From a plasmid: 64,000 nt of DNA. Shown here one piece after another: positions 10,661 to 15,274 of the stretch. The stretch lies in assembly GCF_053078305.1 (NCBI RefSeq), contig NZ_CP166875.1. One strand, given 5' to 3'. The translations under genes were made by a program, and so were the position numbers. Below the pieces are notes generated by a model. That model ran no database searches. It saw only the letters and a list, made by a program, of their open reading frames with translations, and was not told the DNA's origin. How positions within the stretch are numbered: the first letter of the stretch is position 1; every line of letters begins with the position of its first letter.

Positions 10661-10692
10661 TTAATGCTAATGTATGCATACATTAGCATTAA
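10661..10692. repeat. 32-bp perfect palindrome TTAATGCTAATGTATGCATACATTAGCATTAA (copy 1)
   Basis: Read directly; identical copy at 15243-15274. Confidence 0.9.
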
Positions 10693-10705
10693 TGAGGGAT
10701 GATAT

Positions 10706-11068
10706 GTGAGAGACAAAACCAGGGAGGCCATGCGGTTTTTTTTAGGCGGCAGGTGTTACACGGCTGAAAACCTTGAAAAGGATTATCTGGCTGAAGTTGC
10801 TAATTACAGTGACGACCGCTGGGAAGCACCCCAACGCGCCGCACGTCTGGCAGCTGCCGTAAAGCGTTACAAGACATCAGAAATGCTGCGCTTTATTTTT
10901 GCTACCACTGCCTACGATCCCGATCCAGATTTAACCCCGCTGACTGTGAGACGTTTGTGCAAGGCATTGTTCGGCAGAACAGGAAGCCAGTGGCTGGTTG
11001 TTGAAGTTTTTGGGGAGAAGGGGCGTCAGCACCGCAGCGCGGACAGCAATCCGGAGATGGTGGAAAAA
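10706..11068 (+). pseudogene. 5' part of a hypothetical gene interrupted by a Tn3-family element
   Basis: ORF MRDKTREAMRFFLGGRCYTAENLEKDY...NPEMVEK then runs into IR; continuation found at 14969-15214. Confidence 0.55.
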
Positions 11069-11125
11069 GGGGGTTCGCGCCCATTTCCTCTAAAAGTCTC
11101 ACCTTGCTTAGGTAATTAATTGAAT

Positions 11126-11707
11126 TTATTTATAAAACGTTGCAATTTTAGCATCATTTTTTATTGTTCTTTTTAACCTGAAGTACGTCGATCGAGAGAT
11201 ACCTGTTTTTTCTGTCACACTGCCCAGAGATTCTCCCTGTGATATAAGCTCCAACGCTGTAGGCGTTCGTGGATGCTTCTTCCTGCCAAATTTTACGCCT
11301 GCGGCAAGTGCCGCTATTCTTCCGTCGTTTGTCCGCTCCAGAATACGCTCACGTTCCGCTTCAGCTACAGCAGCAAGGATTTGGATAACCATTTTGCCCA
11401 TTGTCCCTTCTGTACTGAGACCGTTCTCCAGGAACCGGATGGCGATCCCCTTTTTGTAACAGCTATCAACCACACGAATCATGTCAGCAGTGTTACGCCC
11501 CAGTCGGTCCATTTTTGTACAGATGATTACGTCGTCTTTCTCTGCACGGGCCAACAACCGCTGTAGTCCTTCCCGTTCATCAGTTGCGCCAGTCATCATA
11601 TCCGTAAAAATACGATCTTCCCGTACCCCGGCATTTTTTAGCTCCGAGATTTGATGTGTTAGCTTCTGATGACTGGTTGATACCCGTGCATACCCCAATA
11701 ACGCCAT
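11126..11707 (-). CDS. tnpR: serine recombinase (resolvase/invertase family)
   Basis: MALLGYARVSTSHQKLTHQ...; catalytic Ser motif and C-terminal HTH. Confidence 0.85.
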   Translation of the reverse strand: MALLGYARVSTSHQKLTHQISELKNAGVREDRIFTDMMTGATDEREGLQRLLARAEKDDVIICTKMDRLGRNTADMIRVVDSCYKKGIAIRFLENGLSTEGTMGKMVIQILAAVAEAERERILERTNDGRIAALAAGVKFGRKKHPRTPTALELISQGESLGSVTEKTGISRSTYFRLKRTIKNDAKIATFYK

Positions 11708-11863
11708 TTTTAGTCTCACTTATCGTTTTTGACACTGCATGGTATCATAATGTACAAAATACGATTTTTGAAACCTGCTTTTATGCTGTTTTAGACAGGT
11801 ATCAGATATCTTAATATTTGATACTAGCCATATTTAACAAATATTTAGCATTTTGGTAAATGT

Positions 11864-14800
11864 ATGCAGAAGTACAAGAAAAGAATTAGTATATTAACAA
11901 AAAGTGAAATAAATGAATTATATCAAGTCCCCTCTTTTAATCCTGTTGAAAGGGATGAGTTTTTTTCGCTGGATATCAGCCTTAAAAGAGAAATTGATAA
12001 AATAATAAATATAGAAAGCAGGGTGTATCTGATATTAATAACAGGGTATTTCAGATATAAACCTGTGATTCCTGAATTTACATTAAAAGACGTAAAAAGG
12101 GATGTGAAATATATTATCCAGACATATTATAAAAACGAAAGTACTAATCTCAATTTAAACATACCTAAAAGTACAAAGTACCGCCTTGTTAAACGAATGC
12201 TTTCTACTCTAGGATTTGAACAACTCACCCCATCTATAAAAAATGAGTTAAGTGAACGTCTGAATGATGTTGCTACTATATGTATGGAACCAAAATATAT
12301 TTTTGATGAATTACTTGCTTTTTTAGGACAGCGGCGTATAGCTCTTCCTGGATACAGTACTGTCCAGAACCTCGTTTCAGATGCTTTAAACTTTGAAAGG
12401 AAAAGGACAATTAATATTTTGTCAAAGAGAATTTATCCTGCCACTGCACAAAAGATTACATCCATCATCCATGATGATGGAATATTAAATTCCATCAGGG
12501 GATATAATTATAGCACGAGAGACTTCTCAGCATCAGAAATAGAAAATGAATTAAGAACTCACAATGTGATAAGTAGTATTTACTATGAAATAAAAGATAT
12601 AATTAATTCATTAGGTATATCCCAGGGAAACATGGAGTACTATGCAACTATCGTAAAACACAGTACAACATTCAGACTTAAGCGACACCCTAAATGGCAA
12701 GGAATACTTTATTTGTGCTGCTACTTGTACTTCAGATACAGAGAGATAAATGATAAAATAATCACAGCCTTCAGATATTTAGTAAAAAAACATAAAGACG
12801 CTTCAGTTTTGTTTGCAAAAGCTCGGGCAACAGAGGAAATAGATCTAATAAATAAAAAGCTTAAGTTTGCGAGTAAAATATTTAACTTCTTCGTTGATAG
12901 TAACATTGAAGACAGCATCCCTTTTGGATATGTTCGTGAAAAGGTTTTTTCACTTATATCGAAAGATGATATGCATCTTGTGAGTGAATTTTTTGACAAA
13001 AATAAAATCGATGTAATTGAATATCAATGGCAGTATATTGACAGCCATCACCTTAAGATCGCCAATTCAATCCGAAAGCTTTTTCTGGCTATAGATATAG
13101 TATATGACAACGAGAAGTCTGTTATTGGCCAGCAAATTACTGCTGCCAAGGATGATCTCAGAGGAAAAGGAAAGCTGGATGCTAAGGATCTGAGGGTAAT
13201 TCATCCATCCGAGAAAAATTACATTGTAAAAGAAGGAGAAATTAACACTCAACGATTCGAATTTCATATGTACAGCAGGGTATCTAACCATCTGGAAAAC
13301 GGTGTCTTTTATGCTGCGGAGAGTGAACAAAACAAGAGACTGGAAGATGATCTCATAGAACGAAGTTACTGGCATAAGAATAAATCGATTTTGATAGAGA
13401 AAACAGGCCTTGAACGACTTATCACACCAATAACGCAGACTCTTAATGAGCTGGAGAATACCTTTAGCGATAAACTGGCTCGTATAACCATTGGAATAAA
13501 CTCAGATGCTAATGAGTTTGTGAAAAAACAACCACACTCCAACAGATTACAGTGGAGTCTGGCCAGTAAAAAATGGAAGACCAGCATCGATAATCCGATT
13601 TACAATCAGATAAAAAATATCGGAATAGTTGACGTAATGAAGTATGTAAACAATGAGACGAATTTTTTGTCTGTGTTTAATGCCATATCATCCAGGAAAA
13701 ATAATCTTGAAGCTGACTATAATGACCTTCTTGCCTGTATATTTGGTAATGGCGCAAATTATGGTGTTCACAGAATGGCATCTGCATCAGACCGTAGTAT
13801 TGGAATACTACGTGATGTGAATGACAAATTCATTCGTCCAGAAACAACAGGAATGGCCAACACAGTAATATCTGATGCAATTGCAAATCTTTCTGTATAT
13901 AAATACTGGACGATAAATGAAGATTCTCCATTTGGAAGTGTTGATGGGCAGAAGCACACTTGCAGAATAAATACATTTAAAGCCCGTTATTCTGCCAAGT
14001 ATTTCAGAAAGGGGAAAGGGGTTTCTGCGATGACACTGGTATCTAATCATGTGCCATTATCAACTGTGGTAATTTCTCCAAATGAATATGAAGGTCATTT
14101 TGCATTTGACTTGTTATATAACAACACCAGTGAAATACAACCAAAGTCATTAGCGACTGACAATCATGGTATAAACAACGTTAATTTTGCGATTCTTGAC
14201 ATTTTTGGCTATCAGTTTTCACCACGTTATGCAAAATTCAAGAAAATATTTAATGAATTATTTGATGTTATACTGGAGAGTGATAAACTCATTATAAAAC
14301 TTAAAAAACAATTTAACTTTAAGCTCATTGAACATGAATGGGAAAACATCCAACATATTATTTGTTCTTTAAGCAGAAAAACAACCATTCAAAGTACGGT
14401 TGTTAAGAAGTTATCTAATACAAAGCGTAGCAACAAGACATTAGCAGCACTTCGGGAGTATGACCGAGTTATAAAATGCATATATGTCCTGGATTATGCT
14501 GACAATAAAACCTTAAGGCAATTTGTGCAACAAGCACTGAACAGAGGTGAAGCTTATCATCAACTAAGAAGAGCAATAGCATCAGTAAATGGAAATCAAT
14601 TTCGCGGTGGTAATGACTACCAAATAGATCAATGGAACGACTGTGCGAGGTTAATAGCTAATTGTGTAATCTATTATAATTCAGCAATATTATCCAGGCT
14701 GGTCGAGAAATTTGAAAAAGAAAATAATAAAAAAGCGATAGATGTTCTGGCTAACTTATCCCCAGTAGCATGGAGACACATTCTCCTTGGAGGGAATTAT

Positions 14801-14902
14801 TCTTTTGAAGATCAAGTTGCGATCACAAATTTGGACAGTCTTTTGGAGGGAGTAGACCCACTAAGTGATATCGGAGATATTGAGTCCGAATATGACGGTT
14901 AA
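11864..14902 (+). CDS. tnpA: Tn3-family transposase
   Basis: 1012 aa, size and position next to resolvase inside Tn3-type IRs; AT-rich codon usage. Confidence 0.75.
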   Translation: MQKYKKRISILTKSEINELYQVPSFNPVERDEFFSLDISLKREIDKIINIESRVYLILITGYFRYKPVIPEFTLKDVKRDVKYIIQTYYKNESTNLNLNIPKSTKYRLVKRMLSTLGFEQLTPSIKNELSERLNDVATICMEPKYIFDELLAFLGQRRIALPGYSTVQNLVSDALNFERKRTINILSKRIYPATAQKITSIIHDDGILNSIRGYNYSTRDFSASEIENELRTHNVISSIYYEIKDIINSLGISQGNMEYYATIVKHSTTFRLKRHPKWQGILYLCCYLYFRYREINDKIITAFRYLVKKHKDASVLFAKARATEEIDLINKKLKFASKIFNFFVDSNIEDSIPFGYVREKVFSLISKDDMHLVSEFFDKNKIDVIEYQWQYIDSHHLKIANSIRKLFLAIDIVYDNEKSVIGQQITAAKDDLRGKGKLDAKDLRVIHPSEKNYIVKEGEINTQRFEFHMYSRVSNHLENGVFYAAESEQNKRLEDDLIERSYWHKNKSILIEKTGLERLITPITQTLNELENTFSDKLARITIGINSDANEFVKKQPHSNRLQWSLASKKWKTSIDNPIYNQIKNIGIVDVMKYVNNETNFLSVFNAISSRKNNLEADYNDLLACIFGNGANYGVHRMASASDRSIGILRDVNDKFIRPETTGMANTVISDAIANLSVYKYWTINEDSPFGSVDGQKHTCRINTFKARYSAKYFRKGKGVSAMTLVSNHVPLSTVVISPNEYEGHFAFDLLYNNTSEIQPKSLATDNHGINNVNFAILDIFGYQFSPRYAKFKKIFNELFDVILESDKLIIKLKKQFNFKLIEHEWENIQHIICSLSRKTTIQSTVVKKLSNTKRSNKTLAALREYDRVIKCIYVLDYADNKTLRQFVQQALNRGEAYHQLRRAIASVNGNQFRGGNDYQIDQWNDCARLIANCVIYYNSAILSRLVEKFEKENNKKAIDVLANLSPVAWRHILLGGNYSFEDQVAITNLDSLLEGVDPLSDIGDIESEYDG

Positions 14903-14968
14903 CAACATGATAAATAATGGTTTTTATGCTAAGAGTGAGACTTTTGGAGGAAATGGGCGCAGAACCCC

Positions 14969-15214
14969 ACTGTGAGACGTTTGTGCAAGGCATTGTTCGG
15001 CAGAACCGGAAGCCAGTGGCTGGTTGTTGAAGTTTTTGGGGAGAAGGGGCGTCAGCACCGCAGCGCGGACAGCAATCCGGAGATGGTGGAAAAAATGGCT
15101 GCCAGATATCGTCATGCCGCCGAACTACACTGGTCCGCAACGCTGGCAGAAATTGAACGGGTAAAGCGGCTTTATCAGACGAAAATTAAGAAATCCAAAA
15201 AAGAAGTGGGTTGA
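14969..15214 (+). pseudogene. 3' part of the interrupted hypothetical gene
   Basis: MRRLCKALFGRTGSQWLVVEVFGEKGRQHRSADSNPEMVEKMAARYRH...; first ~125 bp duplicate 10945-11068. Confidence 0.55.
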
Positions 15215-15242
15215 CTGCCATTGTTATTCTTTTCCTTCATCA

Positions 15243-15274
15243 TTAATGCTAATGTATGCATACATTAGCATTAA
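15243..15274. repeat. 32-bp perfect palindrome (copy 2)
   Basis: Identical to 10661-10692. Confidence 0.9.

Follow-up and report, generated by a model that had tools for sequence, protein, structure and literature searches.

Identical palindromes on both sides of the plasmid gene yadA as possible cognate sites of the protein that it encodes

What might two identical, long palindromes do on either side of a single plasmid gene? The question is raised by a stretch of plasmid DNA (contig NZ_CP166875.1; the whole stretch of 64,000 nt is called the window here) in which the 32-bp perfect palindrome TTAATGCTAATGTATGCATACATTAGCATTAA occurs at 10661-10692 and again at 15243-15274 with 0 mismatches, just as a preliminary description based on the letters of the window had reported. 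No third copy was found in the window with up to 3 mismatches allowed, the window also being searched with the 22-bp core of the palindrome, and the chance expectation from 100 dinucleotide shuffles is 0 matches. The palindrome contains four TAATG pentamers, and its central 12 bp alternate between pyrimidine and purine. Between the two copies lies the gene yadA, which in the window is interrupted by a Tn3-family transposon. We give an even chance to the reading that the palindromes are the cognate sites of a new plasmid-borne DNA-binding family, in which the upstream copy serves as an autoregulatory operator, the downstream copy offers a second site, and the direct repeats make exact loss of yadA possible.

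The gene is among the commonest "hypothetical" genes of IncF-type resistance and virulence plasmids. Intact yadA measures 468-486 bp and encodes a protein of 155-160 aa, carried by transposon-free relatives as a hypothetical protein (WP_001562850.1, WP_001236004.1), and in these uninterrupted relatives the palindromes are spaced 542-556 bp from start to start. The gene length of ~0.7 kb in the preliminary description was thus too high, a figure inflated by a 126-bp duplication of yadA that flanks the transposon. The label "YadA", used by some sources, looks like a positional plasmid open reading frame (ORF) name, and the plasmid protein is not related to the Yersinia adhesin. No family assignment was obtained in Pfam, NCBIfam, PHROG or PADLOC, and no defence or phage family was found for it.

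A wider search for the palindrome, of the kind that the preliminary description had suggested, recovered the perfect 34-mer in 771 PLSDB plasmids, the perfect palindrome in 568 of 5,426 complete E. coli genomes, and 44 distinct site variants. The E. coli genomes that have the palindrome hold a median of one perfect copy, and its occurrences fall at 1,356 plasmid places against 14 chromosomal ones (99% plasmid), where each palindromic copy is counted on both strands and one copy therefore makes 2 places. Because the site is so largely plasmid-borne in E. coli, it is not a chromosomal regulon motif. In IMG/VR, the site was present on one contig only. The palindrome-yadA-palindrome unit is kept on many enterobacterial plasmids, usually as one unit per plasmid, and the site is near-invariant in Escherichia, Salmonella, Klebsiella, Citrobacter and Xenorhabdus. 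Of 13 loci found via the protein alone (93% to 42% identity), nearly all have the gene flanked by this palindrome on either side, and the same 32-mer stands beside homologs of just 42-56% protein identity. Across 11 protein-found loci, the two palindromes are better conserved than the gene, with pairwise identities of 91.5% and 90.8% for the palindromes versus 67% for the region between, and 25-32%, which is the random level, in the 30-60 nt outside. When metagenomes were scanned with the palindrome only, 178 of 220 sites (~81%) adjoined a yadA homolog, 87 of them upstream and 91 downstream. The neighbours of the unit fall into 21 upstream and 27 downstream flank families, with one upstream family pairing with up to 5 downstream families, and no neighbour gene is conserved across them.

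More distant relatives have palindromes of their own. Searched with a profile, a set of 1.84 billion representative proteins gave 176 relatives, and the genomic context was examined for ten distant ones (22-43% identity) on other plasmid types, in Rep_3, RepC/NikA and TrwC-adjacent contexts. Eight of these ten loci are bracketed on both sides by different, locus-matched palindromes. Locus L139 (loci are identified by L numbers) has three sites upstream and one downstream, L140 has related sites at both gene ends, L141 has TTAATGCTAATGTATCGAT... upstream and a perfect TAATACTAACGTATCGATACGTTAGTATTA downstream, L142, on a Rep_3 plasmid, has AATGCTAACCTATCGATTCATTAGCATT upstream and GCTAATGAATTAATTCATTAG downstream, L145 has TAATGGATATATCCATTA upstream and CTAATGTATATATCCATTAG downstream, L146 has GCGTGAGTnACTCACGC on either side, and L150, on a RepC/NikA plasmid, has four copies of AGCTAACAGATnTATCTGTTAGCT, two per side. 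One side is missing for L147, where the contig gives just 135 nt upstream, and for L152, where the contig ends just downstream; L148 has a site downstream only. The pattern TAATG-N8-CATTA is kept in several lineages, with differences in the centre and the outer parts. Since the sites co-vary with the protein on unrelated backbones and there is no other conserved neighbour, the encoded protein is the likely reader of the sites. L051 (2582-2613) and L124 (6873-6904) have a third palindrome of variant sequence, CTAAGGCTAATGTACGCATACATTAGCCTTAA, 83 bp ahead of the usual upstream copy. Together with the extra copies in L139, L142 and L150, which are spaced ~73-183 bp, this indicates that sites can form small arrays.

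The same data bear on the possibility that the palindromes are sites of some other factor acting in trans, whether a protein of the host or a different regulator on the plasmid, with yadA as one member of its regulon. Near-invariance of the site across the five genera is what a conserved host factor would give, 27 internal sites stand away from yadA, and YadA has no recognisable DNA-binding domain. Such a factor is nevertheless quite unlikely, given that no gene besides yadA accompanies the unit consistently, that about four in five sites in the palindrome-only scan flank yadA, that lineage-specific palindromes travel with distant homologs across unrelated plasmid backbones, and that the E. 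coli sites are almost all on plasmids. By inspection only, the site has no likeness to the LexA, Fur, CRP, IHF and NsrR consensus sequences.

The variation among sites is informative as well. In the 44 distinct variants, a sample biased by the search pattern of the palindrome scan, the core GCTAATGTA/TACATTAGC is almost invariant, positions 15/18 take all four pyrimidine/purine combinations, the outer 5 bp vary, and substitutions are mostly one-sided. Given this near-invariant core and the dominance of one-sided changes, primary sequence, and not pairing alone, appears to be under selection. The covariation by itself does not decide between recognition of the duplex and formation of a hairpin.

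The upstream copy (10661-10692), a strandless site whose symmetry extends to 34 bp (10660-10693), is a proposed operator over the yadA promoter. On the plus strand, a putative extended -10 element, TGCTAATGT (TGn plus TAATGT), lies inside the left palindrome arm at 10665-10673, a putative -35 element, TTGTTG, lies 17 bp upstream of it at 10645-10650, and the ribosome-binding site (RBS) GAGGGA (10694-10699) starts two bases past the palindrome and ends 6 nt before the GTG start codon at 10706. Transcription of yadA is predicted to start near 10680, which is the palindrome centre, and the centre of a dyad is the classical position of an operator relative to the transcription start. The same arrangement recurs elsewhere. 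The extended -10 positions are near-invariant in the 44 site variants, and a TTG is found 16-18 bp upstream of the -10 hexamer, reading into yadA, in 69 of 76 units, compared with 2, 0 and 0 of 76 for the other three orientations. Counted by independent flank families, 16 of 21 upstream families have this TTG versus 0 of 28 downstream families, where 4.7% is expected by chance. In most of the homologous loci displayed, the start codon follows ~13-18 nt past the palindrome with an RBS between.

The downstream copy (15243-15274), likewise strandless, has symmetry to 42 bp (15238-15279, CATCA...TGATG) and lies 28 nt past the yadA stop; downstream copies are 7-35 nt past the stop codon in most loci. 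It has no -35 element in either direction and no promoter geometry. Judged by these sequence features, the upstream and downstream copies are not equivalent, and the downstream copy is proposed to be a second binding site and/or an mRNA 3´ hairpin.

We also weighed whether the palindromes might act without any protein, as hairpins or cruciforms. The downstream copy would then be a stabiliser of the mRNA 3´ end, a terminator or an insulator, and the upstream copy a terminator for the upstream genes that happens to hold a promoter. The transcribed downstream copy is indeed predicted to form a 19-bp stem, with a minimum free energy of -38.1 kcal/mol for a 106-nt region (z = -6.6), and the palindrome as single-stranded DNA folds at -12.5 kcal/mol. 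The alternating central 12 bp, the compensated changes at some symmetric positions and the place of the downstream copies shortly after the stop codon fit this account too. However, no intrinsic terminator was called at either copy, the stem is AT-rich, and it is followed by TGATGG or TGAGGG with no U-tract. In a pure hairpin, pairing would persist while the sequence drifted, but the sites are ~91% identical versus ~65-67% for the gene, mostly with one-sided changes. Both copies also match within every lineage though the lineages differ, a match for which a generic terminator has no need, and only part of the upstream copy is ever transcribed if the start is at the centre of the palindrome. 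We consider protein-independent hairpins unlikely. The suggestion in the preliminary description that the palindromes are bidirectional terminators fares badly on the same grounds, as a structural role leaves the conservation of the sequence unexplained.

In the reading that we prefer, YadA, a small, basic, all-helical protein, would bind both palindromes around its own gene, making up a self-contained site-gene-site module. YadA bound at the upstream copy would repress its own promoter, because the -10 element is in the left arm and the predicted start is at the centre of this copy. The downstream copy would be a second operator, allowing cooperative binding, looping over ~0.55 kb or an insulating roadblock, and once transcribed would also give a strong 3´ hairpin. 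Recombination or replication slippage between the 32-42-bp repeats would sometimes delete yadA precisely and leave one solo palindrome. Operators for a dimeric regulator, one of the functions raised in the preliminary description, are accordingly the best-supported of those options by virtue of promoter overlap, site conservation and the palindromes of distant homologs, with dimerisation and DNA binding of YadA being putative.

What can be said of the protein is mixed. The AlphaFold2 monomer is all-helical and confidently modelled, with a predicted local distance difference test score (pLDDT) of 89.8 and a predicted template modelling score (pTM) of 0.85, and has helices at residues 2-8, 12-24, 33-58, 70-81, 87-94 and 108-146. 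YadA is basic (isoelectric point 9.5), and its invariant Arg, Lys, Ser, Thr and Gln residues cluster at 36-50, 83-87 and 99-103. A weak profile match to the winged-helix region of RPC6 (E 0.0085) is the sole hint of a DNA-binding fold; no solved structural relative was found, and there is no helix-turn-helix (HTH), ribbon-helix-helix (RHH) or winged-helix family assignment. Several observations count against YadA as the reader of the palindromes. The putative HTH "recognition helix" (87-94, QWLVVEVF) is hydrophobic, and a linked pseudo-dimer modelled with AlphaFold2 gave no confident dimer (pTM 0.51, pLDDT 74). A fully conserved site of 32 bp exceeds the length of a typical dimer operator. A strict sigma-70 consensus scanner calls no promoter at the site, where each hexamer matches at 3/6 positions, and for this reason the yadA promoter stays a prediction. 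The internal sites that have no adjacent yadA are provable deletion scars in only some cases, and a few compensated pairs among the site variants (5:28 as T-A, A-T and G-C) point to a possible base-pairing constraint. Lastly, in the searchable literature, neither a paper that contains the palindrome string or deals with plasmid yadA nor any experimental data were found.

The preliminary description had also suggested a test for a small cassette that is present or absent between the two copies, and such a difference does occur. Between L050 and L106, the flanks are identical over 400/400 and 400/400 nt, and a single palindrome replaces palindrome-yadA-palindrome; L027 is a second, similar empty site. 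Solo palindromes are found beside PRK09951/YedK-type, HigA-type and XRE-type genes and elsewhere, and some solo sites keep one yadA-type flank. On other plasmids, two solo contexts recur, one beside a PRK09951/YedK-type gene and one ~150 bp downstream of a HigA-type antidote gene (L043, L097, L017 and L059; L045, L053, L069, L104, L066 and L107); these sites may be remains of lost yadA units or targets in their own right. In L115 (1454-1523), a solo palindrome has mirrored flanks, cacgtgttggggcagtatg / catactgccccaacacgtg, with which the perfect palindrome measures ~70 bp and looks like a head-to-head fusion of two yadA-upstream flanks at the site.

These sites would suit a self-contained recombination cassette, in which the gene is cut out as a circle and put back at solo palindromes, either by YadA as a new small recombinase or by an enzyme of the host. 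Precise presence and absence with identical flanks and one site left, solo palindromes in many other contexts, the many flank families and their mixed pairings, conservation that drops to background within ~30 nt outside the palindromes, and the ~70-bp palindrome of L115 all agree with such a cassette, as does the co-evolution of the ends with the encoded protein, which is also seen in transposons. The empty sites, however, fail to separate the mechanisms: site-specific excision and deletion between direct repeats of 32-42 bp have one and the same product, so that homologous recombination or slippage explains them without an enzyme. YadA has no catalytic signature. There is no conserved His-x-His of the HUH/Y1 type, no Pfam hit and only helices in the model; a tyrosine recombinase (R...K...HxxR...W...Y-like, with RKHRH/WY-like spacing) was considered and rejected, as the His is not conserved, residues 108-146 form a single long helix, and no recombinase or transposase fold was matched. 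No recombinase family is linked to the unit. Nor is the site like those of Xer, lox or protelomerase systems: the best ungapped matches to reference sequences of dif, cer, psi, pdif, loxP and telO cover 11-13 of 27-28 positions, a level that shuffled references reach too. A site without polarity should also invert the gene, but the cassette is inverted relative to its flanks in 0 of 76 units. There is usually a single unit per plasmid, and the arrays of 3-4 sites in distant relatives are atypical for a two-ended cassette. A recombination cassette is in our view improbable, and of the hairpin-dependent mobile unit in the preliminary description, the empty sites with their identical flanks stand, whereas the missing HUH, transposase or recombinase signature, the single unit per plasmid and the lack of inversions tell against it.

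A related idea is a new autonomous site-gene-site element, in which a novel YadA reads its own palindromes for more than autoregulation, either for excision and integration or for pairing of sites in plasmid maintenance or incompatibility. We regard this as equally improbable; if true, it would explain the compactness of the module, its wide spread on plasmids and the solo sites at module boundaries.

Comparison with known systems shows partial likenesses in each case. Like the autoregulated plasmid repressors (KorA/KorC of IncP, KfrA, the C-proteins of restriction-modification systems and the archaeal AspA of pNOB8), YadA is a small plasmid-borne protein with a palindrome over its own -10/+1 region and a site that co-varies with the protein lineage. 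Unlike them, it has no HTH, RHH or winged-helix family or structural relative and its binding is putative, and its site is long (32 bp), systematically duplicated downstream and sometimes part of arrays of 3-4. The identical sites upstream and downstream, a few hundred bp apart, recall lac O1/O2, gal OE/OI and parC1/parC2 of pB171 par2, as do the small site arrays in distant YadA relatives; the yadA sites, though, bracket one gene, a partner ATPase or a cargo operon is absent, and looping between the sites or their pairing is purely conjectural. Integron attC cassettes and the pdif modules of Acinetobacter (XerC/D sites) are similarly repeat-bounded genes that are present or absent with one site left, in many contexts. 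The yadA unit differs in having neither a linked integrase nor similarity to Xer sites, in that yadA is the only cargo ever found between the sites, and in the absence of inverted or arrayed cassettes; attC sites conserve structure over sequence, and the yadA palindromes do the opposite. IS200/IS605 elements and palindrome-associated transposable elements (PATEs), which are hairpin-dependent and use an HUH TnpA, share a small (~150 aa) protein between hairpin-forming ends. YadA, in contrast, has no HUH/Y1 motif or alpha/beta fold and is in single copy per replicon, and its ends are identical perfect palindromes, whereas those of IS200/IS605 are distinct subterminal imperfect hairpins.

If YadA binds the palindromes, it would represent a new DNA-binding fold with ready orthogonal pairs of protein and site. 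The analysis predicts that the target spans 22-32 bp (core GCTAATGTAYGCRTACATTAGC), that yadA has a promoter and a transcription start near the dyad, and that distant relatives offer natural variants of specificity. If instead the palindromes recombine, they would be unrecognised breakpoints that shape plasmid mosaicism. Solo palindromes may mark lost modules, and the repeats of 32-42 bp give rise to precise deletions and to ambiguous assemblies.

In the window itself the module is dead, with yadA both split and chimeric. The Tn3-family element that the preliminary description had placed between the copies was located at 11069-14968, with inverted repeats at 11069-11102 and 14935-14968, a resolvase gene on the minus strand (11126-11719) and a transposase gene on the plus strand (11864-14902). 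The 5´ part of yadA (10706-11068, plus strand), which has the GTG start and is of the L001 type, is cut off by the transposon, and the 3´ part (14969-15214, plus strand), of the L002 type, encodes the C-terminus ...RLYQTKIKKSKKEVG and ends with the stop codon at 15212-15214. From the palindrome to the junction, the left part is identical to L001 (plasmid NZ_CP075653) at 376/376 positions. The right part is identical to L002 (plasmid NZ_CP026724) at 273/274 positions, while its match to L001 spans just 228 of 274 nt, of which 217 are identical. A 5-bp target duplication is absent at both junctions, and 126 bp of yadA are directly repeated on either side of the transposon (10943-11068 and 14969-15094, one mismatch), meaning that the junctions are 126 bp apart in yadA coordinates. 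Because the halves match different alleles and the 126 bp are duplicated, this is not a simple Tn3-family insertion. The simplest reading is that two copies of the transposon, inserted at different positions of two alleles, recombined to give a hybrid gene. The exact arrangement of transposon and yadA in the window was found in no PLSDB plasmid. In L138 (NZ_CP045713.1, 2501-6400), the same Tn3-family element abuts a yadA 5´ part at another position and in the opposite orientation, and its far side is again without matching sequence. For this transposon, yadA may be a site of repeated insertion or rearrangement.

Directly upstream of the left palindrome is a toxin-antitoxin pair of vapC (9876-10292) and a phd-type antitoxin gene (10292-10546), which are transcribed away from the palindrome. 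In L002 and other IncF plasmids, the yadA unit instead follows yacAB and a 3´-5´ exonuclease gene, beside RepFII. An exonuclease gene of the RNase T type adjoins yadA in IncFII plasmids (L002, 3111-4549) and also adjoins the yadA-family gene of L140 (1-2977, beside a TrwC relaxase), and a functional linkage is possible. On the far side of vapC, at 9667-9857, is a ~190-bp miniature element whose terminal inverted repeats, GGGGTCAGCCTGGAATTCGGAAAATAAACCACGTTAAG ... CTTAGCGTGGGAAAATTTCCGTTTTCCAAGCGGACCCC, are 38 bp long and of the Tn21 type; it resembles miniature elements derived from Tn3. A partial, inverted copy of it (~125 nt, 97%) is at 15298-15419, just downstream of the right palindrome, and therefore outward-facing transposon ends bracket the vapBC-yadA segment.

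Two further matches to the palindrome were set aside. An exact half-site at 20837-20848 is a chance 12-mer inside the ORF of a 494-aa hydrolase. Rfam mir-155 hits at the two palindromes (10658-10695 and 15240-15277) are sub-threshold and reflect a chance identity between the arm TTAATGCTAAT and the seed region of miR-155, by which automated annotation could be misled.

Finally, the window contains other palindromic elements. A hairpin repeat, CAGCCCACAAAATTTTTTACC / GGTAAAAAATTTTGCGTTCTG, is present in four copies (1513-1560, 46172-46221, 49506-49555 and 55149-55198) and matches the "large perfect palindrome" of the direct repeats in the leading region of pMccB17 (PMC10912980). The pMccB17 palindrome is a leading-region repeat that differs from the yadA palindrome, and the four copies are probably single-strand promoters or single-strand initiation (ssi)-type elements of a conjugative leading region. 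At 57055-57110 is the longest hairpin in the window, ATGATAATATAAGTAAAGCCCCGAAAA / TTTTCGGGGCTTTACTTATATTATCAT, whose arms of 27 nt are perfectly inverted around a 2-nt loop. With A/T runs on its flanks, it may be a bidirectional terminator.

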